Positions 5,501 to 52,362 of a DNA stretch of 64,000 nucleotides are shown here, piece by piece. The stretch covers positions 54,622,001 to 54,686,000 of the forward strand of contig OZ024740.1 of the NCBI GenBank assembly GCA_964016885.1. The letters run 5' to 3'. The number at the start of each line of letters is the position of its first letter. Positions within the stretch are counted from its first letter, which is position 1. Source of the DNA: Eledone cirrhosa (Eukaryota). The position numbers and the translations under genes are program-made. Below the pieces are notes generated by a model. It had not been told where the DNA came from. It did no database searches and saw nothing but the letters and a program-made list of their open reading frames with translations.

Positions 5501-7097
5501 TCCTTTCTGAATTTGTTTAGTAAGATTCTTTATCTAAAACGTGTGTTGTGATCGATATTGTTATACTTTGGGAGGGTCATGTTGCCAATAACAAGCACAC
5601 GCACCAGTTGCTTTCACTTCAATTTATTATAAATTAAATTTATAAATTTATTAATTTATAAATTTCCGATTGGTTGGTTGGTTCCACAACCAGACGATTG
5701 TTCATATATTGTCAAAGTTCTTTCGTCACACATTCTGTGATCTCTTCAGTGACTGGGGATTATTTTCTTTGTTTTTGTACCTCTCCTTTGTTCTGTCCTA
5801 CGCCATCTTGTTTTTGTGTGTGCTGTGTGCTTAGTTTGCGCATGTGTTACATCCGGGTGTCTGTGTGTGTTTATATTTGTTTATTTATTTGTTTATTTAC
5901 ATGTTACTGGTTAGTTGTTCGTTCTATATGTGTGTGTGTTTTCATTTTGTCCTTAATTGTAAGTTGTGATGTTGCTGTTCCATTCATGTTTTCTATTTAA
6001 TTTTGGTTGGAGTTCATTTATGTTTATTGCCTCTGTGATTTGTCTAAACATTGCGTCTTTTCTGTGTGTAGATTCTATTTTTATTTCTATTTACTCTAAT
6101 TTACCCTTATGTTCTATTTTAGCATATTGGTGGAGTACACATGGTTTCTTTACTATCTTGAAGCTCTCGCCAGTGTTCATTTATCCGTTCCCCTATACTG
6201 CGAGCTGTCTCACCTATGTACACTATATTCTTATCTCTACAATGTCCTTCAGTACATCTTTTGCTATATACTACATTTCTAGTTTTACAGTTAATATGGT
6301 GGCTTAATTTACAGATTATACATTTCTTATCTATACAGGGAGGTCTTTGAAAAGGGAATGTATTGCTAATAAGTGTTTTTATGGTGGTACCTGGTCTTTC
6401 TACTATGTTAATATTGAGTTTATGTTTATCTAGGGCCCTTCTAAATGTGTAAGCTAATTCACCTCTAGGGGTTGTATCGATGAACATTACACTCTGGTAT
6501 TTATTGCTATCATACCATGAGTTTATTCTATTAACCTTATTCCTAGTTCTTTCTATTGTAATCAAACATTTGCTCCTATGCAAGGGGCAGGTCACATTTG
6601 TATCATTATTTACCATTTTTCCCCATTTGGTTCTGGCTCCTCTATATACTGATTTTATCTCTCTGATTGTATCCAGAGAACTGCATACGGTGGATGAAGT
6701 GTTGTATGTGTCTCTCTAGTTCTTCGGGGTTGCCCATGCGGGACACGTTTCTCATCACCCGTACCAAATCCTCAATCAGTATGTTGATGTTGGTATGGTC
6801 CGAAACAGGTGAGTTTCGGTGGATCAGATATTTGGAAGTCATGGGTTTGGCATAATAGGAATGGAGGATTTGTTTTTTGTTATCTAATAGAATCCCCAGT
6901 CACTGAAGAGGTCACAGAATGTGTGACTAAAGAACTTTCACAATATATGAACAATCGTTTGGTTGTGGAACCAACCAACCAACCGGAAATTTATAAATTC
7001 CTACATATATAAATTTACTTTATAATAAATTGAAGTGAAAGCAACTGGTGCGTGTGTTTCTTATTGGCAACATGACCCTCCCAAAGTATAACAATAT
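5500..7097 (-). mobile_element. Penelope-like element family A, 5'-truncated, with inverted terminal segment
   Basis: Minus-strand ORF pieces 6642-6842 (RT thumb-like) and 6119-6616 (Cys linker CIDKKCIIC, GIY-YIG NVVY...VYIGETARSIGERINEH). 6891-7097 is an inverted copy of ~5556-5760. Flanked by (TA)n. Confidence 0.9.
5711..5753 (-). ncRNA. Minimal type I hammerhead ribozyme, PLE family A
   Basis: Minus strand GTCA-CTGAAGA-stem II TCACA/TGTGA-GAAA-GAAC-TT-TGAC. The inverted copy at 6899-6941 (+) has GAAA changed to TAAA. Confidence 0.7.
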
Positions 7098-11865: not shown

Positions 11866-14800
11866 TTACAGATATATACTCAGAGTAGGCCCATTCACTC
11901 GGGCCATTCTTGCTTCTCTCACCCATCTTTCAACAAAATGCTGGGAAGAGAGCACTTCCCTCTCTACTCTGATTTTCCTTTTCAAGTGAAATTTGAAAAA
12001 GTCAATCAGAGCATCACCGAAGAGGTAAGTGCTCGTCTTCAGCCATTTCAAACGTGTCCACCATACTATCTCTTTCGCCATGGCCACCAGACAGATAAAA
12101 ACTGCCTGCCCTTCCCGGCTAAAGGAGGAGGGCGGTGCATCCTCACGATGGACTCAGATGATAGCCGGATCCGTCCTAAACGCGACAGCAGGTGTTCGAC
12201 ATAAACCCACAAGTCAGCAATTTTCGGACACTGGACGAGTGCGTTCAGGACGGTTTCGTCGCCCTGCGCGCATCTCGGACATGCCCGGCTGACGGCACCT
12301 CCATTCCTGTAGAGTTTATCCCGAACTGGCAAGGCTCCTCGGTAGCACTGCCAGGCCAGAGATTTCTGGATGTTGTCCATAGGCCCCGGCCCGAACGTTC
12401 TTCCGAAAAGATTGGCTAGTTGATTTTCGTCGACGCCTAGAGTTTCCCCAAGTACGTCGTCGCTCTTCCCCTCCACTAATCCTCTATAGAACGCCGAGGT
12501 GGAGTTTCCACCGATCACATTGCCCGATTGGTCGAGGGCTGTGAGCACCTGAAGACATTCCAGTCTCCAGGCGCTCCCTCTCGGTCTTCGCTTGACCCGG
12601 GACAGCAGCTCCGTCAAGGAAACGAGCTGGGGAAATACGTGTCTAGCAAACGGCGACCACACCTGATCACCGTCGAGGAAGAGGTGGAGGTGTCGTAGCC
12701 TGAGCGCGTGCCTGCGCATCATCAGCCACGGCATGCCCAGCCCTCCACGTAGCGGGTGTTGACAACAGATGGACCGCCTGACCATCGGAGCGCGTCCCTT
12801 CCACAAAAAGCGAAAGAGCAAACGCTCCAGCGCAGTCAGGCGAGGCTTAGGACAAGGTACGACGGTCAGGCGGTAGCAGATGACAGACGCGATGTACGCG
12901 TTAGCCACCTCCGCTCGACCTTTCAGGGTAGCTTCCTCTCCGCCCATTTCTGGGTGAGAGAAGCCACCCTGCTCGTCACCTCGTCCCAGTTTTTTCCGTC
13001 TGGAGGTCCGGACCGAACCAGACCCCTAGCAATTTAACCGGTCCGTCCGTCCAGCGTCCGACGACGCTGTTGGACGGCAGGGACCTACCTCTCCAGGTGC
13101 CGAGCTGCAGGCCCACTGACTTTTCCTGGTTGATCATTGCTCCTGTCACCGCTTCGTATTCTCTTAGTGTAGTGCCGATCGCCTCGATGTGTTAGGCAAT
13201 CGTCCGCATATGCTGACACGGATCTTCCGCATCCTAGTTCGCGCGGGACCCCCGTCAAAGGCTCCAGTTTGTGCAGTAATGGCTCGAGAGTCAATACATA
13301 AAACAGGGACGAGAGGAGACATCCTTGGCGGACCCAGCGCTTGATGTTGAACGGTTCCGAAAGGTGACCGTTCACTCTTACCACAGAGCAGATGTCGCTG
13401 TGCATGGCAGCGATCCAGCCTCTGAAGACGGGCCCAAAGCCAGCCGCCCTCAGGACTGCCGCTAGGTAACGATGGTCGACTCTATCGAAAGCTTTCGACT
13501 GATCTAAATTGATCAAGGACCCACCCGTGCCAGGTTCCCTAGCTACCCTCTCTACGATGTATCGCAAGAGGTGGAGCTTGTCGTGGATGGATCTGTCGGG
13601 AATGGCGCATGTCTGCGTCTCTCCCACCAGACCACCAACGATAAGCGCCAACCTCTTTGCTAGCACCTTGGCCAAAATATTGAACACAGTATTTAGCAGA
13701 GTTATGGGCCAGATTATCTATGTTATCCCCCTTGTTCGGATCCTTTCTCAGCAGCGCCACAGCTCCTCGGCTCACAGATCTGGGAATTCTCCCGTTCTGT
13801 TGCCAGTTGCAGTTGACGTCCGCCAAGAGGCCTCCGAACAAGTCTGGCATCTGTACGTAAAGTTCATAGGGCAGACCATCCAAACCAGGCGATTTACCAC
13901 TTGTGCAGCTAGTCATTGCCTCCCGTACTTCAGCGGCTGTTATCGGCTTTTCGCAACACTCCGCCTCAGTGGCCGAGAGCCGCAGCAGTCCGTCGAGGTA
14001 GACACTAATGTCCATCCCTCAATCCAGCCCACCGCTTCCCCCGAACAACTGAGCGAAGTGTCGCTGAAAAGCGTCACACATTTGCGCGGGATCGAGTAGC
14101 ATGCGCCAGTCGTGGTCCACCATAAACCGGATCGTGGCTTTGTTGCCACGATGCGCCTCCGCCACTCGGGCCCATTGAACGGCTTTCGTCCCCTCGTGTC
14201 TGAGAGTACGCACTCTAGCTCTGACAACGCAGCCTTCGTGCTTTGCATTGAAGAATTGGTCAAGGACCAATTTCGCCGCAAGTACGTCGGTCGCGATGCC
14301 TTTGCTAAGCGCCTCGTCTAATTTTCTAACTAATCCTCTGCTCTATTTTTCTCTATTGCTAAAGCCTTACTAAACCTAATGGACTCTATTCTAATTGCTC
14401 TTTTCAGAGCAAACCACCACTTGTTGTTAACGATGGCCCCCGTCAACGCCCGCAATCTAGTTCGCTAATAGGTCTCTGTAGGCCTTGCGCGCTGGTAAGG
14501 ACGCGTTTAGCTTCCAGTAGCCGGGTCCTCGTCTATGAAGCCTATCTAAGTCAAGCACACAGATCACGAATGTGTGGTCCGTGTAGCTGACTATCTTCAA
14601 TTGTGGACAGCCTATGCTAGACCTATCTATTTCTCTACAAAACACTCTATCTAGATATAATCTGGATGACCCTATACGATTTGTCCAAGTCCACATTGGC
14701 ACATTCGGGAAATCCAATCGGTACCTGACAGACAGTTCAAAACTCCTGAGCAGGTTGATGAGGCTCTTGCACCTTCCTCCCTTATCCGCTAATCCCACAC

Positions 14801-15068
14801 GTCCCAGCGTACATCTAAGATGCCGTTCCAGTCGCCCACTAACACTAAAGAGCGGGACGTTCCAAGAAAGGTCTCCAGACGCCGGAAGAAATCAGGCTGC
14901 CCTGCTCCTGTCGGGGCATAGACGGCCACTAGCCTGAAAGCTTGCCCATCTCCGCTGGTCATGTCTAGCATCTATGTTTAGTGACCTGAGGTCGTTGAGC
15001 AGGTGGCTCTGCTTCCATGACGACCCCAAGCCACGCGCATTTATGCTGCCTATTATGAGTGAGGTCAT
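11866..15068 (-). pseudogene. Tx1-type ORF2 (APE endonuclease + reverse transcriptase), frameshifted
   Basis: Starts MTSLIIGSINARGL. Motifs AVYAP, LVGDWN, LDRVF, YTDH, GYWKLN, KSPGLDGLPYE, LDQSKAFDRVDH, VRQGCLLS, AYADD and CPRC..ETVLNALVQCP. Several frameshifts and a deletion in the APE. Confidence 0.9.
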
Positions 15069-17193: not shown

Positions 17194-17956
17194 TAAATGT
17201 AATTTGAATTTTTCGAATATTAATAATTGTTTCTACTTTAAGCACAAGGCCAGCAATTACCCAGTGCATTACTGGTACTTTATTTTATCGATCCTGTAAG
17301 GATGAAAGCAAAGTCAACCTCGGCGGGATTTGAACTCAGATCGTAAAGGGACGTAACTATGCTGGAATGGATGGGGTCCGACCCTCCATCGATACTGCCA
17401 ATCCACCGCCCTAATATTTTCGAATAGTAATAATAACATTTGATTCGTTTGAAATTATGCAAACAAGACTCAATTTTATAGCCATGTCAGTAGAATGAAC
17501 CCTTAATTCTTGCTCTTGTGTTGGCATGTGAACAGAACTGCAGACACTAATGTTTCTGCGTATCACCCTTCATCATTTCAACTCACTGTTCACCTTCCAA
17601 ACTGTCAGAGCTAGTGAAAATATATGCTATTTTCAAAAATACACAGTGACTGCTAATATGCAGATCTGACTGATCAGCCAGTCTGCTAATAAGCAAATCA
17701 GGCCAATCAGTCACTGTGTATTTTTGAAAATAGCATATATTTTCACTAGTTCTGACAGTTTGGCAGGTGAACAGTCAGCTGTACAGATGAAGGGTGATAC
17801 CCAGAAACATTAGTGTCTGCGGTTCTGTTTATATGCCAACAAAAGAGCAAGTATGAAGGGTTCATTCTACTGACATGGTTATAAAATTGAGGCATGTTGC
17901 ATAATTGCAAACGAATCGAATGTTATTATTAATATTCGAAAAACTCAGATTATATT

Positions 17957-17958
<2 letters not shown>
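17194..17958. repeat. Long imperfect palindrome (foldback/MITE-like), left arm interrupted by a SINE
   Basis: 17417-17652 pairs with 17708-~17943, and 17194-17227 pairs with the right end. Spacer is ~55 bp. Confidence 0.85.
17228..17410 (-). mobile_element. Full-length SINE with ~18-bp target-site duplication
   Basis: Box A/B, core and tail present. TTTTCGAATA(T/G)TAATAAT at 17210-17227 and 17417-17434. Confidence 0.85.
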
Positions 17959-17987
<29 letters not shown>

Positions 17988-23073: not shown

Positions 23074-23233
<160 letters not shown>

Positions 23234-23656
23234 AAAAATCCAGCTCCGACAAAGCTGTATATATACCAGTATGTGAATTTCGAATCTCGAATGATATACG
23301 ATGTGTTTAATAGATAAATAAAATTCACGATGTCGGATGAAAAATTTAAATTCTACTTTTAAGCTGAGCCAGCATATGAAGCTCCATATGCAAATGAGGT
23401 TGATTAGCACATCTACACAGGCAGAAATACTATATATTTTCGTCGGTTTCATGTTCCAGGAGAGAGCAGGTGAAGTTCTGTCCTGATGGCGGCCACAGCC
23501 AGAAAAGTACATTGAGAGTTGTACCCCGCTACTTCAGCTTGACTCCTCTAGACGGCGTTAGCCGTCAGCATTTAAATATTCATAGCTAGAAGCCTTTCCA
23601 AATGTTTATTTATTACGAATATCGTATATCATTAGGTATACGAAATTCACATACAT

Positions 23657-24931: not shown

Positions 24932-25058
24932 CATCTATATATTATCGCAACACTCCATGGAAAGTTTCACACATCGGTCTGCTCTGTAGCTCTCATCATC
25001 TTGAAATAATTCAAACGAACGAAATTCTGTATGAAATTATATATATATATATATATAT

Positions 25059-25186
25059 ATAGGAACGAGTAGGACCCCGGCGGCTGAGCTCAAGCCGTTT
25101 CGACGGCTGATTCTGGACTAAATTTAGTCCAGAATTAGCCGTCGAAACGGCTTGAGCTCAGCCGTCGGGGTCCTACTCGTTCCTAT
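25059..25186. repeat. 128-bp spacerless palindrome containing the 3' half of a hammerhead
   Basis: Centre CTAAATTTAG, only two G-T pairs. The right arm contains GAAA-CGGCT..AGCCG-TC. Confidence 0.95.
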
Positions 25187-25263
25187 TACCCACTCTACTA
25201 CCCTAAGTATTGAGTACTCTGGTGCGTTATGGTCCACCTGGTTCCTTACCACATTTCCTTCGT

Positions 25264-25307
<44 letters not shown>

Positions 25308-25391
25308 AAAGCTAAACAGAAATAATAACTTAATCGGTACAGTATATGGAATGGATATATTAGGTTAACGCTTGATATAGCAGGAACAGGG

Positions 25392-25427
25392 TCTTAACGT
25401 TTCGGACGTTAGCCTTTCATCAGAAGA
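25392..25427 (-). ncRNA. Minimal type I hammerhead ribozyme, family H
   Basis: Minus strand TCTT-CTGATGA-AAGGCTAACGTCC-GAAA-CG-TT-AAGA, with an AACGTT palindrome. Stem II is weak. Confidence 0.6.
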
Positions 25428-25556
25428 AAGAATGAGAAATACGATAGATTGAGGGGACGGGTGGGATGGAGTTGGAAAAAATATCTTTAGATAAAAATAA
25501 CAGGTCCACTCATGTTGACATCTCTTGTTACACGCGCGCACGCACGCACACACACA

Positions 25557-26434: not shown

Positions 26435-27737
26435 TTAAGTTATTTTATAGTGAGAGAATTTAGCTTTTAGTTTGTGGTTGCAGTATAATGATCGTTCAAT
26501 TCTATCGTTAAGTAGTTTGTTTTGGGATTTTAATATGTAAAAGAGCTCAAGGTTACATAACCTGAAGTACTTCAATCCACTCCGATATGCACTTGCGCTG
26601 GAAAGTATATCCCATTTTAAGGTGAACTGTTGGTTGTGTTCACGGAGTTGCCAGGTCTTGTTGGCGAGCGTGGTCACAAAACGGTGATTAGGATGTTTGA
26701 TTGAGAATCGATGACGGTACCAGCGAGATTTAAACGAGGTGGTGGTAGATCCGATATAATACCATTTCTGGTCGTTCGATTCAACCGTGCATTGGTAAAC
26801 AATGTTGGACTTTAGGCATTCATTCTTCAATGGACATCTTTCAGGTAGATGACAGTTACATTCTTTGTTGTGGGTAGCGGGTATACCATGGATAGGTTGT
26901 GATAGCGGTGCAGGTGGGACGTGTAATACCCGTCTCCCATTTACTGGTTGGGAGGCAGATATTGCGTTCTGCCCATCTGTTACTAAAATGTTTTGTTTTG
27001 TAGAGTTGTTTAATTGCCTTAAGTTAAGTTTTTTTATGTATGCTTCAAGGTTTGGTGCCGTGGAGTATGATAGTCTAATAGTTTTAGAGTTCAGAATTTT
27101 GCTGTATTTATGGGAACTAGGGAAGTGTTTGTTGATTAACTTAAAGAATGAAAGAGATAGTTTTGTACTAATCGAGGCATTAAAAATAGGATTGTACCAG
27201 ATATACTTTCTACAACGTGATTTATTTGGTGGTGATTTTATATTATTAGTATGTCTGGTAGTACTGTATGTATGTGCTTGTATTTTAGTCCCCCGGTTAC
27301 GCATTCCTTGATTTCGTGTAGAGCTATGTGTGTTATGGAAATTTCTATCAATGTATTCTATTGTATCCCGGTGGTCAGCATTCCTTAATGCATTATTGTA
27401 GTATTCAGCGTGTTCACTAAAAATATCAGAGTTAGACGATAGGCGAGAGATTCTAAGAGAAATACTCCGGGGAACTGATTTGATCATGGAGAGTGGGTGG
27501 TTAGAGTTAAAATTGATATACGTAAGGTTCTCATTCACCTTGTGGAAGGGTCGTATCTGTCCGGTATTTAAATTAAGCGTTACGTCCAGAAAGTTTACTA
27601 CCTTAAGATTGTATTCGTATGTTATTTTTAGACCCAGTTCACTAAAAGATTTTCTAATATTTTTCCGTAGCCTTTCAAGATTTTGGTTATTCAAGTTATT
27701 AACTAATAAGAGCCCGTCATCTCTGTATATCCCCCCC

Positions 27738-27740
<3 letters not shown>
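26435..27740 (-). CDS. PLE RT C-terminal half + GIY-YIG endonuclease (5'-truncated; the ORF-track extension to 27985 is microsatellite)
   Basis: YRDD motif, CxCx5C linker, GIY-YIG motifs, C-terminal LNDR..CNHK. Confidence 0.88.
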
Positions 27741-27781
<41 letters not shown>

Positions 27782-27809
27782 AAATATATATATATATATA
27801 TGTGTGTGA

Positions 27810-27959
<150 letters not shown>

Positions 27960-28028
27960 AAAAAGGGATGAAATCGAAAATGCAACTGAAGTCTTATTTT
28001 TTTAAAAAATATATATATTTATTTGGTT

Positions 28029-36557: not shown

Positions 36558-36591
<34 letters not shown>

Positions 36592-36611
36592 TTATTAAAA
36601 TAACAGATTAA

Positions 36612-36662
36612 AGTTTAAGCAAAGAATCGCTGCTTTCACCCTTAACGGGATCTTCTGAAACT
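36612..36662 (-). ncRNA. Hammerhead motif (CAGAAGA core), inverted copy, PLE family C
   Basis: Reverse complement of 40065-40115. Confidence 0.65.
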
Positions 36663-37221
36663 AACAAAGTCAATCTGTAAACGCAGAACTGGATATTTAA
36701 AAAAACGTCGCAACCGGAGGAAGACAGGAAGACGAAACTTTGGTTCGTGGAAACGTTCGCTGGCAAAGAACGGGAAAAAACGAATAATACGTCATTTATA
36801 GGAGCGGTGAAAAACAATTACGCGCAAAGACAGAACCACGTTTATCGTATAAAAGAGGTCGTAGACTAATGTTCTCTTAGGTGGTGCATAGAGCAGTTCC
36901 CTGGCAATGAGCGAAAAAACGAAGATAATACGTCATATGTGGACCGTGGAGAACAATAGCACGCAAAGACAAAACCACGTAAATGGTATAGCAGAAGTCG
37001 TAGACAAAAATTCTAACTAGGAGATCAAATGGATCTCCGCTACAGAGTTAAGAACAAAGTAAATAAATACAATACAGAAGTAATAGAAATAAAAAAATAC
37101 ATACACGCAAACAAATACGAACATACACAAGCATACGCAAAAACTTACCATAGGTATACAAAACCACGCACATATAAATATGTATGCGTGTATACAAATA
37201 AATAAATAATTATATAAACGT

Positions 37222-39137
37222 CCTTCGAAAATGATGTCTTGGAACTCATTCGGAGTATCAAATATCGGAATAGGAGCAATTCCTTCCAGCAAGACCTGAA
37301 GAATAGAATTCGTTCAATTAAGGATTCTAACGCCGTGCACGTCCATTCGGACAAAATTGGCAACCTATATCAAGTGGAGCGCAGTACTTACCATCAACTA
37401 CTACATAATACTGTAACTAAGGATTACCGTAAAACTAATCGGTCCGTCATCAATGAAATCAACGATGCCCGGTTTAAAATCACATCTGATCTCAACATCC
37501 TGGACCGGACCGAACCTCTGGACCCTATTTCCCCCCACTTTAACCTGAAGGATCACAAATCCAATTTTCCGAACAACCCCTCGATTCGGCTTATTAACCC
37601 TACGAAGTCCGATTTAGGTAGACTTAGTAAAACGATTCTTGATAGAATTATACCTGAAATTAGAAGTTTGGCCCCTCTTGCACTGTGGAACAATTATTTC
37701 GCGGTGATTGATTGGTTCAACGGCATATGTAACAAGGAACATTGCCGTTTTATCCAATTCGACATCAACAATTACTACTCCTCCATCACTTTACCACTCC
37801 TCCTTAGAGCTATCAATTTCGCTAAAACACTCACAGTGGTTAAGGGTTTCGAAATTGATGTCATCCTCAATGCCCGAAAGTCGGTGATTAATTTCGACGA
37901 CTCTATTTGGCTAAAAAAATCCAATAGTACCCCATTCGACGTGAGTATGGGCGCCAGTGACTCTGCGGAGGTTACTGATCTTATTGGCCTTTTCCTTCTT
38001 TTCTCTATCAAGGACGAATTCCCCAACGCGGGCGGTGGTTTGTATCGTGACGATGGTCTTTTGACCATGACTAAGTGCGGACCTCGTGCTTGCGACAGGT
38101 TCAGAAAAGAACTCACAGCCTTCTTTAAAGGCTTCAACCTCTCTATACAGGTTGAGGCCAATCTCTTGGTCGTTAATTACCTCGACGTTACCCTCAATTT
38201 ATTGAATGGGTTGTATTACCTGTACAGAAAGCCGAATGATACGCTTAATTACATAAGTAAGCATTCCAACCATCCTGCCAGCATAACCAAGAACCTGGTA
38301 AGAAACGTTTCGTTGAGGCTTTCCCGTCTTTCCACCAACGAGCGTATTTTCAACGACCATTCCACTTATTACAATGAAGCTCTGGCTCGAAGTGCATTTG
38401 TCGATAAGGTAGCATATACAGAGTACGAAAATAGACCTAGAAGTAATAGATCCCGTCGCATTTGTTGGTATAACCCACCATATAATATGGAGGTGGCCTC
38501 ACCTTTAGCTAAGATCTTTCTTTCCCTTATTACGAAGCATTTTCCCCCTACACATAAATACAGTCAAATTTTTAATAGAAATACTATTAAAATTCCTTAC
38601 TCTACGACTCCTAACCTTGCACATAACATCACAGCTTCAAATTTAGCTAAACTACCTAGCCGTAGGTACACGTGCAACCCTGTAGTTAGTACTAACTGTA
38701 ATTGTAGGAATCGGGCTGATTGCCCTCTATCCGGGAAATGCCTCTCTAGCAACATTGTCTACAAATGTAAGGTTGTAACACCCACGTCCCGTAGGGCCTA
38801 CATAGGGTTAACCGCCAATAGTTTCAAGCAGCGTCTATACATGTATACCTATTCTCTTCGTTAACCTCTAAGAAGGAATATGACGTCACTTTCAGCTTAT
38901 ATCTGGAGTCTAAAAGACAACCACATCCAATATAAGTTACACTGGGAGATCCTAGCTAGGGCTAGATCGTATAACGGGAATAAAAGACCATGTGACCTCT
39001 GCGCCGCTGAGGCCCTGGAAATACTCTACGCCACAGACCACATCTTAAACAAAAAATCTGAGGCAATTTCGGCTTGTAAACATAAATTGCACAAAGCTTT
39101 CCTGTATTACAGCCCCACGTTATACCCTAACGGATAG
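37222..39137 (+). pseudogene. PLE RT + GIY-YIG endonuclease, one in-frame TAA (38862-38864), N-terminus truncated
   Basis: Motifs LKDHK, IRLINP, FIQFDINNYYSSI, MGASDSAEVTDLIG, GLYRDDGL, YLDVTL, WYNPP, CNCRNRADCPLSGKC, NIVY..AYIGLT..FKQR and CDLC..LNKKSE..CKH. 38880-39137 continues in the same frame. Confidence 0.93.
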
Positions 39138-39721
39138 TACGATCTATACGTGGATTTTTTACGTCTTGATGTGGTAGCTAAGTATATGTTTTGTTTATTC
39201 CTTTACTTATTTGCATAGGTAAGTATATATTACCCGTATGTTTTGGGAAGGTACGTATACCTTCCCGTACGTATATTTGATTGTTATTGCGTATAATTTT
39301 CATATATTCTGGTACATATGATTTCGCTATGTGTATACGGGAGTTTTGCGTCTGTGTGAGTATGCAGGTTCGTACGTATGGTGGGTGTGTGTATATGTGT
39401 ACTTTATGTTTTAGTTGACTTACGTCTCCGAACATTCGTGTATTTATATGTAGGTATGTGTGTGCGCTTGTTATATACGTATTTATTTATTTATATACGT
39501 TTATATAATTATTTATTTATTTGTATACACGCATACACACACACATATTTATATGTGCGTGGTTTTGTATACCTATGGTTAAGTTTTTGCGTATGCTTGT
39601 GTATGTTCGTATTTGTTTGCGTGTATGTATTTATTTATTTCAATTACTTCTGTATTGTATTTATTTACTTTGTTCTTAACTCTGTAGCGGAGATCCATTT
39701 GATCTCCTAGTTAGAATTTTT

Positions 39722-39970
39722 GTCTACGACTTCTGCTATACCATTTACGTGGTTTTGTCTTTGCGTGCTAGTGTTCTCCACGGTCCACATATGACGTATT
39801 ATCTTCGTTTTTTCGCTCATTGCCAGGGAACTGCTCTATGCACCACCTAAGAGAACATTAGTCTACGACCTTTTTTATGCCATAAACGTGGTTCTGTCTT
39901 TGCGCGTAATTGTTTTTCACCGCTCCTATAAATGACGTATTATTCGTTTTTTCCCGTTCTTTGCCAGCGA
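39722..39970 (+). repeat. Diverged ~139-bp tandem duplication in the PLE-C 3' UTR
   Basis: GTCTACGAC..ACGTGGTT.TGTCTTTGCG..ATGACGTATTAT..TTGCCAG occurs twice. Confidence 0.75.
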
Positions 39971-40064
39971 ACGTTTCCACGAACCAAAGTTTCGTCTTCC
40001 TGTCTTCCTCCGGTTGCGACGTTTTTTTAAATATCCAGTTCTGCGTTTACAGATTGACTTTGTT

Positions 40065-40115
40065 AGTTTCAGAAGATCCCGTTAAGGGTGAAAGCAGCGA
40101 TTCTTTGCTTAAACT
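40065..40115 (+). ncRNA. Type I hammerhead motif (CAGAAGA core), PLE family C
   Basis: AGTTT-CAGAAGA-T-CCC(GTTAA)GGG-T-GAAA-GCA(GCGATTCTT)TGC-TT-AAACT. Confidence 0.68.
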
Positions 40116-40222
40116 TTAATCTGTTATTTTAATAAATATTTGCTCTACGGTTCTTATATATTTGATATATATTTATCCTTATCGAGCCCTCTTTGGATTT
40201 TAGTCTTCAAATGTATTATTAT

Positions 40223-40259
<37 letters not shown>

Positions 40260-40791: not shown

Positions 40792-43700
40792 AATCGCACC
40801 TTGAATTTCTCACTGGACATCTCTCTCTCTCTCTCTCTCTCTAACCGTTTCCACCACTCTTCCCGCTATCTCTCTCGCTCCTCTCTTCTGTTTCTCTCCT
40901 CTTTCTTTTTTCTATTTCTCTCTCTCCAGATCGCACAAGCTCTCTTTCTCTCCTTACCTGAAAATCGCTCCTTAAATTTCTTACTGTACTTATCTCTCTC
41001 TCTGTCCCTCTCTAACACTCTCTAACCTACCCACTATCTCTCTCTCTTCCCTCCACACCGAAATGGACTGCATACAGGGAAATGATCAAATTAAAAGTCA
41101 GCGAAACTGGTCAAAGATGGAACTAGTGGTTTGGATCAAGAAAGTCACCACCAAGCAAAACGATTGAGGACACCCTGAAGAACCATGGCTATCTGACGAC
41201 TCTGGCGCAGATAAAAAGAAAAAGAAAAGAAATCGAGAAGGCCAATGTCCTCATAGCGCCGCATATGGCGATGCTAAGACGTGTCCTCAAGGAGGAGAAA
41301 AACAAAGAGAAATGAAAAAAAAAAGAAAAGGAAGAAATCACAAGCACGGACCTGAAAGAAAATGTGATACCCGCTGCCACAGTCAGGGAGGGCAGTGCGG
41401 GCAACCAACAAGCAAACGGTAAAGGTCAGAAGCGAAATCACCTTCCGAAGGAGAACCAAGCGGAGAGGGACCAGTGGACAACTGTCCAAAGGAAGAACAG
41501 AACGCGCCGAGACACTGGGAGCAAGAAAACCTTGGTAACGTGCAAGTTCTTCAGGTACAGGACCTGCTGGCATGGAGAGACAGGGACAGGCTGCAGATTC
41601 GCTCACCCCAGGCCCCAAGCGAACTATACCCATACCACTCGCACAACATGCCCCAGCCAAAACCAAAACAAGCTGCCCCAGGAGTATGCTGATGTCACGC
41701 GTGCCGCTCCAACAAGGAGAAGGCACACACATGCTGACGAGATACAGATGGCAGCAGCAGAGCAGAAACATTTTTTAGTAATGGCAGAGAAGATTGTAGT
41801 ACAGCTGACCTGTCTGCATCGTTTTCAGAGACAGGGTCACCCATACCGGCACTCGAGACCACCACAATTAAGGGACCCAGAGTGGCCGCCGCTGACATCA
41901 GGCCAGGTGTCATACCGACAGCAATTGCTGGCATCCCAAAAGTCACACCAGTGCTGCTGCTGAATAAAACTGGTGAAACTCACTAATATGAGTAAAATTT
42001 CCTACCTGGGTGACTTAGCCATAAGCACTCAAGCATTATGCATGGCACTAACCAAAACGCACCTGACAAGCAGTATAGCAGATGCAGAAATACATATACC
42101 AATATATACGATATTTCGTTCGGACAGGAAGGAGAGAACTGATGGTGGGTTGTTCTGTATATCCGTTAAAATGCCTCGCCAATTGTACTGTTGACACATT
42201 CAAACTCAGTCTGTGACACACTGATAGTACATATGAAGCAACTAAAGACAGTAATATATGACACATATCGGCCGCCCGATGCCTCCAGTCATGAGGGTAA
42301 ATTTGAGGATAGCCTCAGTAGGATAGAAGAGGTCCTTGACAAACTGGACAAGGGTGTCAACATTCTACTGCTGGGAGACTTCAACCTGCCAAAGCTCAAA
42401 TGGCCTGAGAGCCACCTCCTCCCTGGAATGACATCAATAGATCAGGGACAGACGGAGTCCCTGCTGGCCCTCACACACAGGCTGTACTGCTCCCCCAAAG
42501 AGGCGAGAATGTCCTGGATCTCTGTTTTAGAAACAACGAAGTGCTCATCCACAATGTAAATGTGACACCAACAATTTTCTCGGATCATAACTTAGTAGAA
42601 CTTATGATATGTGGTCCGAGATAATCAACAGAGACACAACGATCAAGAAGCACCGGGACCTTATCCAGCCTTAATTCTACAAGGCTAACTGGAAAAAGAT
42701 CAAGAGAGAAATCCGGAAGCAAATATAGAGCGAAAACACCGCTACACAAGACACCAACACACAATTTCAACACTTCATGACAACGATACACACTATATGC
42801 CAAAAGTTTTTCCCGGAGAAAAAGGCCAACAGACACAAAAATCTTATTCCCAGATATAGGAAAATCCTTATGAGACGAAGAACCAAGCTCGCAAACCAGT
42901 TGAATGCACAACAAGAAAACAAAAACAAGAAGGAATCCTATTTGAAACGTGTACTACTTGACACCGAGATTGCACTCAAACTTTCCCATGTAAATGAGAG
43001 GGCAAATAAAGAAAGCAGAGACATAGAAAATATTAAAACAAACCCTAAGGCCTTCTTTAAATTTGCAAAAGAAACTGCCTCGGTACACTGTAAGATTGGG
43101 CCACACTTTCATACAGACGGTTCATTAACCGAGAATCCCCAAGAGATATGTGAAATACTGAACGAACAGTACAAAAGTGTGTTCACATGTCCACTGAGGC
43201 ACATGCAAATAGCAAAGCCAGAGGAGTTATTTGATGCCACAACACTACATGAAGAAATGGTGACCATCAGCCACATAGACATAACAGTGGAGGATGTGGT
43301 ATAAGCCATAGGTGAAATTAGAACAGACTCAGCTGCTGGTCCTGATGGATTCCTAGCAGTCCGAATAAAAACATGTAAGCGGGCTTTAGCAACCCCACTG
43401 AAGACGCTCTTCAGAAGCTCCTTGGCTAGCGGTATACTACCCAGGGAGCTGAAAGAAGGCACAATATTCCTATCCATAAAGGAGGTAGCAGAACGGAGGC
43501 CAACAACTATAGGCCAGTCTCCCTGACGTCACATATCGGTATGGTCATGGAGCGAATCATCAGAAAGAATCTGATCACTTTCCTCGAGGAAAATGACCGC
43601 CTGACTAGCACGCAGCATGGATTTCGCCCAGAAAGAATCTGCCTTACACAGCTGCTACATCACTACGACTGGGTACTGAAACAACTGCTAGACAGCTCAC

Positions 43701-44949
43701 ATGTGGACGTGATATATCTTCACTGTGCGAAGGCCTTTGACAAGGTCGACCACGGAATGATATGTTACAAACTACACGGACTCGGCATAACTAGAAATGT
43801 AGGTTAGTGGCTGCATGACTTCTTAAAGGACAGTCGCAGCAAACGGGACTGTCTCAAATGAAACATCAGTAACAAGTAGGGTGCCCCAGGTCACAGTCCT
43901 GGAACTACTACTGTTTTTGGAGGCTCTCTCAGACATGGCCTCTGTAGTACATACAACAACATCCCTCATTATGCTGATGACACTAAGGGAGCACAAGCAA
44001 TCAAAAACCGGCTGACGCTGCCCTTTTACAACAAGATCTGGATGCCATATACAAATGGGCGGGAGACAGCAACATGCAATTTAATGCTGGCAAATTCCAA
44101 GCCCTACAATACAAACCTGCAAACACAAATACAGTACAACACAGTTACGCCGGACCAGGAGGGACCGATATCCCCGTGTCGAAATTGATACGAGACCTGG
44201 GTATAGACATGAGCGATGATGCATCTTTTTCCTCACACATCATGAATATGGCAACAATGTGCAGACAACTCCTGGCTGAATCTAGTGGACTTTCCGGACA
44301 AGAGACCGAGACACCATCTTGACACTATGGAGGACATTAATCCTAAGCCGCCTGGACTATTTCTCCTAGTTGTGGTCACCCCATATGTCAAACTAAACAC
44401 GGTGCTTGAGGCAATCCAGCGAAGCTACACCAAGAGGATTGCGATGATGAAGGAGATAAGCTACTGGGAGAGGCAAAACGAACTGAACCTCTACTCCTTG
44501 GAACGAAGACGGGAGGGCTACGCAGTGATCTACATGTGGAAAATCCTGGAGGGACTAGCACCAAACTTTGGCATTGGGAGCTGAACCAACGGTCGAACAG
44601 GACGTCACTGTGTGGTGCCAAAGATCCCGTCTTCTACATCTAGAATAAAGAGCAGATATTGCAATAGACTGGGGTTCAAGGGACCTCAACTCTTCAACAA
44701 GCTGCCGAGGTTACTGGGAGTTCTGCATGGTGGGGATGTCTTCAAGAAACATCTCGATACCTTGCTATCCAGGATCCCGCATGAGCCCACAGCAAGGCAC
44801 GAGGGAAACCTAAGGGCAGCAAAAACGAACTCCCTCTTAAACCAGTGGCCAACCAATATGGGCTGGAGATAAAATGTTTAGCAGAAAGGGCGGTGCCCTA
44901 GCATGGCCTCGGCCGGATGGCTGGAACAGGTAAAAGAGTAAAAAAGTAT
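40535..44949 (+). mobile_element. CR1-group LINE, copy 2 (near full length, degenerate)
   Basis: (CT)-rich 5' region, ORF1 remnant with CCCH finger, APE (LLLGDFNLP), RT (KAFDKVDH, GTGCCCCAG at the GVPQG position, YADD), C-terminal LEAIQR..YWER..LYSLERRR, GAGTAAAA tail. Confidence 0.93.
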
Positions 44950-46587: not shown

Positions 46588-47533
<946 letters not shown>

Positions 47534-47695
47534 TGTATAGATAAGAAATGTATAATCTGTAAACTCTCCCATTTCTCCAACCCCTGCATATATATCTCTC
47601 TCTCTCCCTCTCCCCTTCTTCCTCTCTACCTTTTCTACTCTATCTTCCCCCGTAACCTCACTTAAGGGTATTTACATTTTACATTTTAACCATTC

Positions 47696-48491: not shown

Positions 48492-48607
48492 TCCGAATTA
48501 GTGTGGTAGAGACGAGTACAAATATTGTTGAGGTGTATAACTATACATACATGCACACATTTTCCGTTTGTCGTTTTTGGTGCACCCGGCCGATTAACTC
48601 ACTCGAT

Positions 48608-48615
48608 ATGCAAAT
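48608..48615 (+). promoter_or_regulatory. Octamer motif ATGCAAAT, present in each array unit (function inferred)
   Basis: Perfect at 48608, 50476, 51933 (+) and 49807, 50244, 51253, 51700 (-), with one mismatch at 49371. Always ~75-85 nt upstream of the HHR on the same strand. Confidence 0.4.
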
Positions 48616-48690
48616 TTGCCTGATCAGCCGTTAATATGCATGAGGAAAATATATACTTTCAGACGTTAAATCATCTGGCAGGAAGGTATA

Positions 48691-48731
48691 CGGTGCTGAC
48701 GATAGCTAATAAGCTTGAAACTAGTACATCG
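48691..48731 (+). ncRNA. Minimal type I hammerhead ribozyme, array family I (representative copy)
   Basis: CGGTG-CTGACGA-T-AGCT(AATA)AGCT-T-GAAA-CTAG-TA-CATCG, with palindromic ACTAGT stem III and a GUA site. Confidence 0.85.
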
Positions 48732-50970
48732 TTCATTTGTCAGTGTTGAACAATAGGGCAACGATGGTTCCTAAAACTGTACGAGCATTATAATAAATGT
48801 TCGGTAAATCCATACGTACATATATATATGTGTGCATGTATGTATATATATATACATACTACTGTACGTCTGTATACATATATGTATGTACGTATACATA
48901 CTTATATTTAAGTAACAGCCGTACTAAGAGTGAGAAATGAAATTTCGTTTCATGTCTTCCGTTCACAAGTATATACATATATGGAAAAGAATGAAATGAA
49001 ATTTCATTTCTCACTCTTAGTACGGCTGATACCTAAATATAGGTATTTATACGTACATACTTATCTGTATACCGATGTACAGTAGTATGTATATATATAT
49101 ACATACATGCACACATATATATATATGTATGTACGTATGGGTTTTCCAAACATTTATTATTATGTTCGGTTTGTTTGTAAAGAAACAGCCCAAATTACGC
49201 CGTACAGTGTTCGGCCACCATCGTTGCCATTTTGTTCAACACTGACAAAGGAACAATGAACTAGTTTCAAGCTTGTTAGCTATCGTCAGCATCGTATACC
49301 TTCCCTGTCAGATGATTGAACGTCTGAAAGTATGTACTTTCTTTATGCATATTAACGGATGAACAGCCTAATTTGCGTATCGAGTGAGTTAGTCTGCCGG
49401 TCGTACCGAAAACGATAAATGGAAAGGAATGAAATGAAATGACATTTATCACTCTTAGTACTGGCTGATGCTTAAATATCAGTATGTATACGTACATTCA
49501 TATATGTATACAGACGCACAGTTCTATGTATATATATACATACATGCACACATATATATATATGTACGTATGGGTTTACCGAACATTTATTATAATATTC
49601 GGTTTATTTGTAAACAAACAAACTTCCAGAATTAATCCGTACAGTGTTCGGCAACCATCGTTGCCATTTTCTTCAACACTGACAAAGGAACGATGAACTA
49701 GTTTGAAGATTATTAGCTATCGTCAGCATCGTATACCTTCCTGCCAGATGATTGAACGTTTGAAAGTATATACTTTCCTTATGCATATTAACGGCAGAGC
49801 AGCCTAATTTGCATATCGAGTGATTTAGTCGGCCGGGGTTACCGAAATCGATAAACGGAAAAAATGAAACGAAATTTCATTTTTCACTCTTAGTACGGCT
49901 GATACTTAAATATAAGTATGTATACGTACATACATATATGTATATAGACATACAGTAGTATGTATATATATATATACATACATGCAGACATATAGATATA
50001 TATGTACGTATGGATTTGCCGCACATTTATTATAATGCTCGGTGTGTTTGTAAACAAGCATCCCGAATTAAGCCGTACAGTGTTTTAGAACCATCGTTGC
50101 CCTTTTGTTCACTACTGACACAGGAACGATATAACTGGTTTCAAGCTTATTAGCTATCTTCAGCACCGTATACCTTTCTGCCAAATGATCGTACGTCTGA
50201 AAGTATATACTTTCCTTATGCATATTAACGGCTGAGCAGCCTAATTTGCATATCGAGGGAGTTAATCGGTCGGGCGCACCGAAAACGACAAACGGAAAAT
50301 GTGTGCATGTATGTATATATATATATACATACTACTGTACATCTGTTTAAATATATGTATGTACGTATATATACTTATATTTAAGTAACAGCCGTACTAA
50401 GAGTGAGAAATGAAATTTCGTTTCATTTTTTCCGTTTATAGTTTTCGGTGCGCCCGGCCGACTAACTCACTCGATATGCAAATTAGGCTGCTCAGCCATT
50501 AATATGCATGAGGAAAGTATATACTTTCAGACGTTCAATCATCTAGCTGGAAGGTATACGGTGCTGAAGATAGCTAATAAGCTTGAAACTCGTACATCGT
50601 TCCTTTGTCAGTGTTGAACAAATGGGCAACGATGGTTGCTAAACACCGTACGGCTTTATTCGTGATGTTTGTTTACAAACACACCGAGCATTATAATAAA
50701 TGTTCGGTAAGTCCATACGTACATATATATATATGTGCATGTATGTATATATATAGATATTGCTGTACGTCTGTATATATATATATGTATGTACGTATAC
50801 ATACTTATATTTAAGTAACAGCCATACTAAGAGTGAGAAATGAAATTTCGTTTCATTTTTTCCTTTCATAATTATATACATATATGGAAAAGAATGAAAT
50901 GAGATTTCATTTCTCACTCTTAGTACGACTGATAACTTAAATATCAGTATGTATACGTACATACATATAT

Positions 50971-51018
<48 letters not shown>

Positions 51019-51432
51019 GTATGGGTTTACCGGGCATTTATTATAATGTTCGGTTTGTTTGTAACAAACAGCCCGAAATAAGTCGTACAGTGTTCGGCAA
51101 CCATCGTTGCCATTTTCTTCAACACTGACAAAGGAACGATGAACTTGTTTCAAGCTTATTAGCCATGGTCAGCATCATATACCTTCCAGTCAGATGATTG
51201 AATGTTTGAAAGTATATACTTTCCCTATGCATATTAATGTGTGAGCAGCCTAATTTGCATATCGAGTGAGTTAATCGGCCGGGCGTACCGAACACGATAA
51301 ATGGAAAACAATGATATGAAATTTTATTTCTCAATCTTAGTGCGGCTGATACTTAAATATCAGTATGTATGTATACGTACATATATACATATATACAGAC
51401 GTACATTAGTATGTATATATATATACATACAT

Positions 51433-51463
<31 letters not shown>

Positions 51464-52330
51464 CGTATGGATTTACCGAACCTTTATTATAATGCTCGGT
51501 GTTTTCGTAAACAAACATCCAGAATTAAGCCGTACAGTGTTTAGCAACCATCGTTGCCCTTTTGTTCAACACTGACACAGGAACGATGTACTATTTTCAA
51601 GCTTATTAGCTATCCTCAGCACCGTATACCTTGCTGCCAGATGATTGAACGTCTGAAAGTATATACTTTCCTTATGTATATTAACGTCTGAGCAGCCTAA
51701 TTTGCATATTGAGTGAGTTAATCGGTTGGGCGCACCGAAAACGACAAACGGAAAATGTGTGCATGTATGTATATATATATATACATACTACTGTACATCT
51801 GTTTAAATATATGTATGTACGTATATATACTTATATTTAAGTAACAGCCGTACTAAGAGTGAGAAATGAAATTTCGTTTCATTTTTTTCCGTTTATAGTT
51901 TTCGGTGCGCCCGGCCGACTAACTCACTCGATATGCAAATTAGGCTGCTGAGCCGTTAATCTGCATAAGGAAAGTATATTCTTTCAGACGTTCAATCATC
52001 TGGCAGGAAGGTATACGGTACTGACGATAGCTAATATGCTTGAAACTAGTATATCGTTCCTTTGTCAGTGTTGAAGAAAATGGCAACGATGGTTGCCGAA
52101 CACTGTACGGCTTAACTCGGGAAGTTTGTTTGTTCACAAACACACTGAGCATTATAATAAATGTTCGGTAAATCCATGCGTACATATATATATATGTGTG
52201 TGCATGTATGTATACATATACATACATACTGTTCATCTGTATACACATATGTATGTACGTATACATTCTGATATTTAAGTATCAGCCGTACTAAGAGTGG
52301 GAAATGAAATTTCTTGTTATTCTTTTCCAT

Positions 52331-52362
<32 letters not shown>

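Follow-up and report, generated by a model that had tools for sequence, protein, structure and literature searches.

A decayed hammerhead repeat cluster in Eledone cirrhosa probably derives from Penelope-dependent retrozymes with a predicted U6-type promoter

The closest described systems are the non-LTR retrozymes of coral, Mytilus and axolotl (Cervera and de la Pena 2020, PMC7229834), which are heavily transcribed into circles. Family A, the repeat family analysed here, resembles them as a non-coding, low-GC repeat of 150-450 bp with one type I hammerhead per unit, a 6-bp stem I and a short palindromic stem III, and in its thousands of dispersed copies, its self-paired predicted circle and the presence of Penelope in the same genome. 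Unlike those repeats, its copies mostly span 1-1.5 units, carry inverted arms on (AT)n and lack a clear target-site duplication. No host promoter is named in the accessible part of that paper, where “promoter” occurs twice and refers to T7. For vertebrate retrozymes, Li, Clavereau and Pollet (2026, 10.64898/2026.07.22.740005) proposed Penelope mobilisation and found monomers dispersed and multimers local, as here. Their argument uses co-occurrence and pseudo-LTR homology, whereas the link in family A comes from end patterns and three head-to-head tail joints, with no homologous pseudo-LTR found. None of their 35 genomes is from a mollusc, and the available part of that preprint describes no promoter.

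Two other hammerhead repeats carry promoters of their own. Newt satellite 2 (Coats, Zhang, Epstein 1994; via PMC2220036) has an internal snRNA-type promoter, as predicted here, reported there as Pol II; schistosome SM-alpha (Ferbeyre 1998; via PMC2220036) has its own promoter, cited there as Pol III. In family A, by contrast, the predicted cassette consists of a U6/MRP-type PSE and a TATA box at shortened spacing, and, as compared to newt satellite 2, it recurs in at least seven PSE+TATA families of an invertebrate-type genome. The SM-alpha promoter is said to be built of tRNA-like boxes. Finally, Neptune-clade Penelope elements (PMC4209133; 10.1101/2021.04.23.441226) share with family A the 5′ truncation, partial tandems, inverted 5′ copies, microsatellite targets and hammerheads with a palindromic stem III. 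Family A differs from them in having no ORF, a unit of ~430 bp and a short helix II of 3 bp plus a mismatch, as compared to 7-8 bp in Penelope.

In the window, the 64,000-nucleotide stretch of the Eledone cirrhosa genome that was analysed, eight units of ~430-437 bp lie within 48560-52313, each with a hammerhead-like motif, as an earlier note on this DNA had described. Its repeat array holds as a set of units, while the implied head-to-tail order does not: the orientation is mixed, with five units on the minus strand (49434, 49869, 50299, 51314, 51755), three on the plus strand (48560, 50421, 51877) and two inverted 120-bp partial units.

48560..48946, plus strand: unit 1, with a 38-bp internal deletion, starting at an inversion joint
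48690-48732, plus strand: intact hammerhead of unit 1, predicted cut after 48726
48607, plus strand: PSE of unit 1, decayed
48947..48997, no strand: two 3′ ends meeting tail-to-tail in a short AT-rich stretch, a joint seen again at 50850-50900
48998..49434, minus strand: unit 2, intact hammerhead 49295-49253, predicted cut after 49259; PSE 49379 with one change
49436..49869, minus strand: unit 3, hammerhead with G12C and helix II broken, core at 49726; PSE 49815
49871..50299, minus strand: unit 4, core boxes kept (50163); PSE 50252
50299..50419, plus strand: partial unit, 5′-truncated, head-to-head with unit 4 (Penelope-type 5′ inversion)
50421..50849, plus strand: unit 5, core boxes kept (50564), palindrome broken; PSE 50475
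50901..51314, minus strand: unit 6, hammerhead with G8C, core at 51172; PSE 51261
51318..51755, minus strand: unit 7, core boxes kept (51619), palindrome broken; PSE 51708
51755..51875, plus strand: second inverted partial unit, a duplicate of 50299-50419
51877..52313, plus strand: unit 8, intact hammerhead 52015-52057, predicted cut after 52051; PSE 51932

The units are 86-92% identical to the family A consensus. A block duplication of ~1.45 kb, with an overall identity of 88%, includes both inverted partial units, and on the side of unit 8 the array ends at (AG)n, at 52331. As the earlier note stated, there is no ORF, the sole stop-free frame of at least 120 aa being a 132-aa low-complexity frame over (TA)n, and CTGANGA and GAAA are kept in six of the eight copies, the exceptions being 49726 (G12C) and 51172 (G8C). 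Unit 4 has a broken stem III palindrome and a 1-nt insertion, and core and palindrome are both kept in three of the eight copies (48696 plus, 49289 minus, 52021 plus). Two consecutive intact hammerheads, by which Li et al. 2026 define an active array, occur on no strand here, and the locus therefore probably makes no circles. The segment 49200-50200, formerly proposed as a template, holds one G12C copy and one broken-palindrome copy. Given the decayed units, the mixed orientation and the lack of consecutive intact ribozymes, the ~435-nt RNAs that had been expected from this array find no support at this locus, whereas the proposed class, non-LTR retrozyme with a dimer-type type I hammerhead, stands at the level of the family. 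The cluster is a decayed, scrambled relic, from which the release of monomers is no longer likely.

The family is dispersed in the genome. The family A unit has 428-429 nt, a GC content of ~35%, no real ORF, one type I hammerhead and no LTR structure. A 30-place motif pattern matched the genome exactly 5,263 times, as compared to 0 for the reversed control, and a second tag matched 4,144 times; same-strand motif pairs ~430-450 bp apart were found elsewhere in the genome, and multimers at loci L110 and L238. A metagenome scan for the motif returned 0 matches. The assignment of family A to the non-LTR retrozymes, an already described class of element, is well supported by these sequence features. 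The literature search, which lay outside subscription journals, Repbase and Dfam, found no paper on family A or on a PSE in retrozymes; the family could already be listed among the hammerheads in the supplements to PMC7229834, PMC4209133 and the 2026 preprint, also outside that search. The dispersed family, the promoter cassette and the Penelope-type insertion pattern are absent from the earlier note.

We next consider the hammerhead itself. The family consensus matches 11 of 11 fixed core positions (CUGANGA, GAAA, UH), with a conservation of 94-100% per position in 133-143 fragments. At 10.1/11.1, where helix II begins, most copies have a U.U mismatch, and one subfamily C.A, rather than the usual G-C. 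Axolotl HHR_Amex2, with the same U.U, cleaves 22% as a monomer and more as a dimer (PMC7229834), and G10.1-C11.1 is therefore usual, not defining, for a type I hammerhead. In Xenopus, however, cleavage in vitro is reported for only one of nine predicted retrozyme dimers (bioRxiv 10.64898/2026.07.22.740005). Position 7 reads C, A or G in the window, as had been noted; among 135 fragments of the family, 70% have C, 35 have T, three have A and two have G. We read A and G as decay at a CpG and rejected them as evidence. The A-T swap at the base of stem I of the copy at 52015-52057 is present as well, and was discarded as covariation evidence because it is a private change; the two substitutions are rare family-wide (G144A in 3 of 133, C176T in 3 of 143).

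Constraint at the level of RNA is seen among shared variants and sister families. Within unit positions 1-295, the predicted fold accommodates 24 of 26 shared variants, where 18.4 would be expected (p about 0.001), and all seven helix transitions yield G.U on the ribozyme strand (p=0.008). The five shared variants inside the hammerhead sit at N7, H17, 10.1, 11.1 and one wobble; none falls on the 11 core positions, which alone is not significant (about 1 expected). In eight related family consensuses, whose identity to A is 41-70%, every one of the 72 stem I/II cells is paired, as compared to a mean of 46.6 in shuffled data, where 72 was reached in 0 of 20,000 shuffles; the stem I register is the best of 12, and the families are related. 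Stem III is palindromic in seven of the eight consensuses, all seven different, and family E replaces C3-G8 with U3-A8. The seven palindromes and this swap show, at the level of sequence, selection for dimer catalysis, and the type I hammerhead predicted from core, helices and covariation is well supported.

That the repeats are instead DNA-level elements (satellite, Helitron-like or fold-back) that resemble hammerheads by chance is very improbable. Such a reading could draw on the DNA-level duplication in the local array, on the equal folding of both strands (z -5.7 and -5.8, positions 109-295) and on Rfam, which gave no match for one unit's 271-bp core at E<=10 and no hammerhead family for the whole window among 150 of 266 matches listed, these being only microsatellite-driven miRNA-type matches; the scanned core (49726) carries G12C. 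It is contradicted by the strand-specific wobble variants and the cross-family covariation, and by copies with fixed 3′ ends and random 5′ ends, a reverse-transcription-like truncation rate, and neither a fixed 5′ terminus nor a terminal inverted repeat in family A.

How were the copies inserted? Of the 3′ ends, 161 of 209 lie within three AT-rich patches of the unit, and flanks start with an AT repeat at 115 of 209 3′ ends as compared to 47 of 207 5′ ends; the location of the ends in (AT)n masks target-site duplications. The 5′ truncation is random, at about 0.4% per nt, 69 of 205 runs are longer than one unit, and adjacent opposite-strand runs comprise 56 head-to-head and 4 tail-to-tail pairs. 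This combination of 5′ truncation, partial tandems, inverted 5′ copies and microsatellite targets is the Penelope-mobilised pattern, and the insertions look Penelope-made. Moreover, in 3 of 109 loci a family A 5′ end is joined directly to an outward-facing Penelope tail, the three head-to-head joints involving tails of two Penelope families. One of these elements lies in the window.

36590..40226, plus strand: Neptune-like Penelope element whose inverted pseudo-LTRs lie on (TA)n

Its tail is head-to-head with family A in L004 and L088, which makes it a candidate mobiliser of the family; we take it to belong to the Neptune clade. The three Penelope-like frames matched no Pfam family and were recognised by visible RT, zinc-linker and GIY-YIG motifs and by their atlas neighbours.

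These likenesses raise the question of whether the unit is itself an orphaned pseudo-LTR of an autonomous Penelope, and the repeats truncated Penelope insertions rather than an independent retrozyme. The ends, inversions and targets are Penelope-like (10.1101/2021.04.23.441226), and Xenopus retrozymes derive from pseudo-LTRs (10.64898/2026.07.22.740005). Against this, upstream of a unit we found another unit or a truncation, and in 13 family A loci the matches to Penelope proteins vary in distance and orientation. In addition, the window's Penelope pseudo-LTRs do not resemble the unit and contain no PSE that reaches its score, and the fetched loci and the window yielded no autonomous homologue of the unit. 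We regard this reading as improbable for the present family; the unit may have originated from a pseudo-LTR long ago.

The 5′ ends also bear on the template. Among 93 runs at risk, only one 5′ end falls at 172-180, the cleavage site, and no pile-up is seen there. Since the ends do not stop at this site, the template would be a circle or an uncleaved multimer, and a cleaved linear monomer is excluded as the main template by the end statistics. Genome-wide, a scan for ends at the cleavage site gave 9 matches, which without a matched control are not interpretable alone; among 100 of 479 rows, inspected by eye, ~8 break at 175-176 together, as compared to 3-5 per neighbouring position.

Instead of circles, which we favour, the templates could be long uncleaved or partly cleaved multimers from source arrays or host read-through, of which the weak U.U hammerhead would only trim the 5′ leaders or which it would seldom cut. 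The end statistics fit multimers equally well, because few reverse transcripts would reach the 5′ end of a long RNA, and the minimal hammerheads of Penelope show poor cleavage in vitro (PMC4209133). Diagnostic alleles are shared to 88% (607/691) by tandem neighbours and to 92% (638/697; p=0.03) by head-to-head arms, where about 95% is expected from one circle; some templates would thus have been mixed multimers, or copies were converted later. Yet neighbours are far more alike than random pairs (88% versus 60% of alleles, 35% versus 2% of rare variants), circles are the prevailing form in mussel and about half of the total in axolotl (PMC7229834), and the palindromes and the U3-A8 swap point to dimer catalysis. 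With the same family and mobiliser, multimer templates are a serious possibility, somewhat short of an even chance.

How would such repeats be transcribed? In each full unit, a PSE lies ~90 nt before the ribozyme and is followed by a TATA box, as in unit 3 and in a sister family.

49767..49815, minus strand: example of the cassette, with PSE, TATA 43 nt later and hammerhead core 89 nt after the PSE
23231..23645, plus strand: decayed copy of sister family B (~341-bp unit), PSE 23387, TATA 44 nt later, decayed hammerhead near 23482

The unit PSE matches the proximal element of the host U6, U6atac and MRP genes and scores 20.4 bits on a matrix from five host Pol III genes, which themselves score 18.2-21.7; the background is 1 in 119,772 window positions, namely the family B copy, and 1 in 510,651 flank positions. 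This form of PSE is absent from the host RNase P, U1 and U2 genes. The PSE+TATA pattern alone fetched 30 loci, all 30 in hammerhead repeat families: 21 have both hammerhead boxes 89-106 nt downstream, and the other nine are, by eye, decayed, truncated or U3-A8 members. The invariance of the PSE across families B-G is by construction, because these families were found with it. At least seven families thereby carry a U6/MRP-type PSE and TATA box with predicted promoter function, and a copy of the host U6-type promoter ahead of the ribozyme suggests a route to the transcription of such repeats.

Other elements were considered. A newt-like octamer enhancer was rejected: in the Pol III genes of the host, the motif occupies -77 to -79 beside a TATA, and is thus the proximal element. 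A CT-rich distal motif near -260 precedes host U1, U2, U6 and RNase P, and visual inspection of the unit shows no clear counterpart. The U1/U2-like pentamer that lies 26-27 nt ahead of TATA is a weak resemblance, seen by eye only.

Near the predicted start (125-133) the 5′ ends form no sharp peak: we counted nine against 3.6 expected (p=0.012 unadjusted), other peaks being as high. Genome-wide, the breaks there are spread: by eye, among 100 of 127 listed, ~13 lie at 129 (four of them internal deletions), ~11 at 125 and ~8 at 119. 

Which polymerase would read the cassette? A plain Pol III type 3 promoter would yield an RNA of ~310 nt that stops in the T runs of unit positions 5-26, with full units arising from rare read-through. 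The U6/U6atac/MRP form of the PSE, rather than the U1/U2 form, fits this reading, as do a pyrimidine-purine step at unit position 129, 30 nt after TATA, the location of the largest group of 3′ ends (78 of 209) at those T runs, and family G, the only one with a host-like PSE-TATA distance (48 nt; 47-49 in host genes). In families A-F, in contrast, the distance is 43-44 nt, 4-5 nt short, and the newt satellite 2 precedent is Pol II (cited in PMC2220036). Moreover, among 85 copies continuing across the unit joint, 34 have 5-7 T at that point, which looks like an inherited allele and would mean that source lineages read through T6. A plain Pol III promoter is plausible, and we lean against it.

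We consider it quite probable that the array represents a non-autonomous, Penelope-dependent retroposon, the non-LTR retrozyme family A, in a cluster that has since decayed and been rearranged locally. The life cycle of the family would be as follows. In active source copies, the PSE and TATA of one unit would start transcription ~15 nt before the hammerhead, and transcription would continue through the following units. Two hammerheads would pair through their palindromic stem III and excise a unit-length RNA, which a host ligase could circularise, as the axolotl, mussel and coral retrozymes suggest. A Penelope reverse transcriptase/endonuclease would then nick (AT)n, prime at the AT-rich patches of the RNA, and halt at random, at about 0.4% per nt, often beyond one unit; priming on both target strands would produce the head-to-head arms, of which the end pattern is observed and the enzyme presumed. 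Because the RNA includes the promoter of the next unit, new copies would inherit it. The cluster in the window would have formed by two-armed insertions, the local ~1.45-kb duplication and allele mixing.

A broader proposal is tentative, and somewhat more likely to need revision than to stand as it is. A superfamily of at least seven retrozyme families would have captured a host snRNA-type promoter (U6-type PSE+TATA) inside the replicated unit, the 4-5 nt shorter spacing leading to Pol II or terminator-resistant transcription; the hammerhead would remove the leader and close promoter-containing circles, and Penelope enzymes would copy these by double-primed rolling-circle reverse transcription.

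In the available parts of the cited literature, the promoter of invertebrate retrozymes is unnamed and the evidence for their mobiliser is indirect. This genome offers a promoter candidate that by itself marks hammerhead repeats, together with two natural spacing classes (A-F and G) and direct Penelope-tail joints for comparison. If the proposal is true, the full life cycle of an invertebrate retrozyme would be readable from sequence, and families A-F and G would provide a natural test of PSE-TATA spacing as a determinant of polymerase choice.

The array at 48560-52313 had been described in the earlier note as a ~435-bp repeat with one hammerhead ribozyme per unit. Eight full units (about 430-437 bp), each with the motif, are present together with two 120-bp partial units, but the arrangement is not a simple tandem.

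Order of units on the + strand, 48560-52313
Unit 1, forward
Units 2-4, reverse
Partial unit and unit 5, forward
Units 6-7, reverse
Partial unit and unit 8, forward

The array contains a duplicated block of ~1.45 kb, whose copies are 88% identical, and the runs of the array show a mixture of diagnostic alleles. Six of the eight full units keep both core boxes (CTGANGA and GAAA), as had been reported, while the stem III palindrome is kept along with both boxes by units 1, 2 and 8 only, no two of which are consecutive on one strand. Helix II starts with U.U in the array motifs. An Rfam search with the core of one unit, whose motif carries the G12C change, gave no match, and no hammerhead appeared among the 150 of 266 Rfam matches listed for the window. 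The window units are 86-92% identical to the family A consensus, and the locus is, to judge from its sequence, a decayed relic. Other hammerhead-like cores occur in the window at 46955 (-), 5749 (-), 25423 (-), 34818 (+), 18400 (-), 62855 (-), 22439 (+), 22953 (+) and, ~50 bp off the left edge of the array, 48488 (-); several are close to Penelope-like frames.

Across the genome (3.0 Gb, 1,796 contigs), a 30-place motif pattern of family A has 5,263 exact matches and its reversed control none. The consensus, the majority of 44 full units, is 428 nt long. We piled up 198 fragments from 97 loci and the window, leaving out 30 motif-chosen loci, and counted variants at a frequency of at least 10% over unit positions 1-295. 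The predicted circular fold accommodates 24 of 26 such variants against 18.4 expected (p about 0.001), a test biased in its own favour because the same consensus served to predict the fold; two of the 26 break a pair. All seven helix transitions (7/7) give G.U on the ribozyme strand. Within the hammerhead, variation falls at N7 (C/U), H17 (U/A), 10.1 and 11.1 (U.U or C.A) and at a single wobble of stem I. Variation in family A is structure-preserving. The U.U at the helix II base is common to family A and axolotl HHR_Amex2, which cleaves, and does so better as a dimer (PMC7229834).

What could drive the transcription of such a unit? Three U6 loci, one U6atac locus and the single MRP gene of the host carry a common element, located at -77 to -79, together with a TATA box (-30). 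The matrix was built from three of ten fetched U6 loci (the others being the same array), one of six U6atac loci (the others lacking a promoter) and MRP. Unit position 56 of family A scores 20.4 bits on it, as compared to 18.2-21.7 for the training genes, and a TATA box lies 43 nt past this PSE. The single background match among 119,772 window positions, at 23387, falls in the following feature.

23231-23645, + strand, decayed copy of family B, a second hammerhead repeat

Several observations count against the promoter reading. The PSE-TATA spacing is 43-44 nt in families A-F and 48 in G, as compared to 47-49 in the host genes, and this PSE form is absent from the host RNase P, U1 and U2 genes. 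No sharp 5′-end peak was seen at the predicted transcription start among the mapped family A runs and breaks. Finally, 34 of 85 joint-spanning copies have 5-7 T right before the next promoter, where plain Pol III would be expected to stop. With these points weighed, we consider that the PSE + TATA cassette is quite probably a working promoter, with Pol II and Pol III roughly equal candidates as its polymerase. In the host, a CT-rich motif near -260 is common to U1, U2, U6 and RNase P (L091, L093, L106, L146, L147, L172-L183). The proximal pentamer of U1, U2 and RNase P differs from the U6/U6atac/MRP element, and RNase P may therefore have a Pol II-type promoter. Tandem arrays of snRNA genes, with periods of 2.2 kb for U2, 1.8 kb for U6 and 2.7 kb for U1, occur at contigs G000:C3 307.35-307.45 Mb, C19 31.78-31.84 Mb and C1128.

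Family B has a ~341-bp unit and 1,096 candidates genome-wide; by blastn, its sole non-microsatellite likeness to family A is a 28-nt stretch holding the PSE match. A genome search for PSE + TATA, with the A and B consensuses excluded, gave 2,831 matches, including overlaps and A variants, against 564 in the reversed control. The first 30 loci fall at 26 separate places. Both hammerhead boxes lie 89-106 nt downstream in 21 of the 30, and inspection by eye assigns the other nine to such families too, as decayed, truncated or variant copies. In the window, this loose core pattern occurs 22 times over 128 kb (both strands). The hammerhead was not in the query, so its presence at these loci is unbiased, whereas the invariance of the PSE is not. 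In the eight consensuses (A, B, C, C2, D, E, F and G, from 3-44 copies each), 72 of 72 stem cells are paired, as compared to 46.6 when shuffled. Seven different stem III palindromes occur among them, C2 (3 copies) being non-palindromic, and the helices covary across families. Family E has U3-A8 in place of C3-G8, a swap also found in Schistosoma Penelope elements (PMC4209133). Family G (L219, L220, L300-L309; 1,230 candidates) combines the host spacing with a G-C pair at the base of helix II. At window 17500-17960, two inverted copies of a further repeat show a PSE-like element in decay, a TATA-like box and, at 17784, a hammerhead with an A4 core, as in the Penelope pseudo-LTR motif; the tail of this repeat resembles family D, and related sequence lies upstream in locus L161.

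How are the copies inserted? We mapped 211 runs over 109 loci, once 18 overlapping ones had been removed from the initial 127. The 3′ ends lie within three AT-rich unit patches in 161 of 209 cases, and an AT repeat starts the 3′ flank in 115/209, as compared to 47/207 for the 5′ flank. Adjacent runs on opposite strands are head-to-head in 56 cases and tail-to-tail in four. The 5′ ends are scattered, at a rate of about 0.38% per nt; of the 93 runs at risk, a single one has its 5′ end at 172-180. This end pattern matches insertion features of Penelope-like elements described in 10.1101/2021.04.23.441226. Complete runs exceed one unit in 69 of 205 cases; runs of this length cannot be copied from a linear monomer whose two ends are hammerhead cuts, but they can come from a circle or from an uncleaved multimer. 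Diagnostic alleles agree in 607/691 comparisons of tandem neighbours and 638/697 of head-to-head arms, against 60% for random pairs. A whole insertion usually comes from one template, and the tandem sharing is below the ~95% that a single circle predicts.

At two loci (L004, L088), the family A 5′ end directly abuts an outward-facing tail that belongs to the Penelope family of window 36590-40226, and at a third (L139) it abuts the tail of another Penelope family. Insertion into an older Penelope copy followed by deletion could also have left such joints; we read them as probable co-insertions. The first Penelope family has 713-aa frames, ~95% identity among its top copies and 72,836 candidates. 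The pseudo-LTR of this Neptune-like family carries a hammerhead-like motif, a putative ribozyme in which core position 4 is A instead of U, helix II begins with U.U and stem III is stable; one and the same 62-nt stretch is seen 28 times among ~40 instances at 30 loci (L240-L269).

Further repeat features of the window
40064-40115 (+) and 36663-36612 (-), the pseudo-LTR hammerhead-like motif
26435-28018 (-) and 6119-6715 (-), Penelope-like coding remnants
46671-47534, pseudo-LTR copy of the 6119-6715 element, immediately left of the array
662-2795 / 41758-43889 (94% identical) and 12066-14900 (-), LINE-type elements that are broken and include endonuclease and RT frames
25060-25265 (+), an element of ~200 bp that contains a long palindrome and has (TA)n on its flanks; 15 family A runs have 3′ flanks that match 25000-25500

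In the most likely cycle, transcription driven by the cassette would start near unit position 129 and read through into the next units. The RNA would be cut after position 175 of successive units, presumably by dimer cleavage, and then ligated into circles. Penelope enzymes may finally carry out target-primed copying at (AT)n, beginning in AT-rich loops of the RNA and in many cases using both strands of the target.

The proposal of a retrozyme system holds for the family, which has the sequence features of animal non-LTR retrozymes as set out in PMC7229834 and 10.64898/2026.07.22.740005, but the locus itself lacks two consecutive intact ribozymes on one strand. Newt satellite 2 is known to have an snRNA-type promoter (as cited in PMC2220036). 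The open-access literature searched (main texts) contains no description of family A or of a PSE in retrozymes. The class of element is already described; the promoter cassette over seven families is the part that specialists would want to test.
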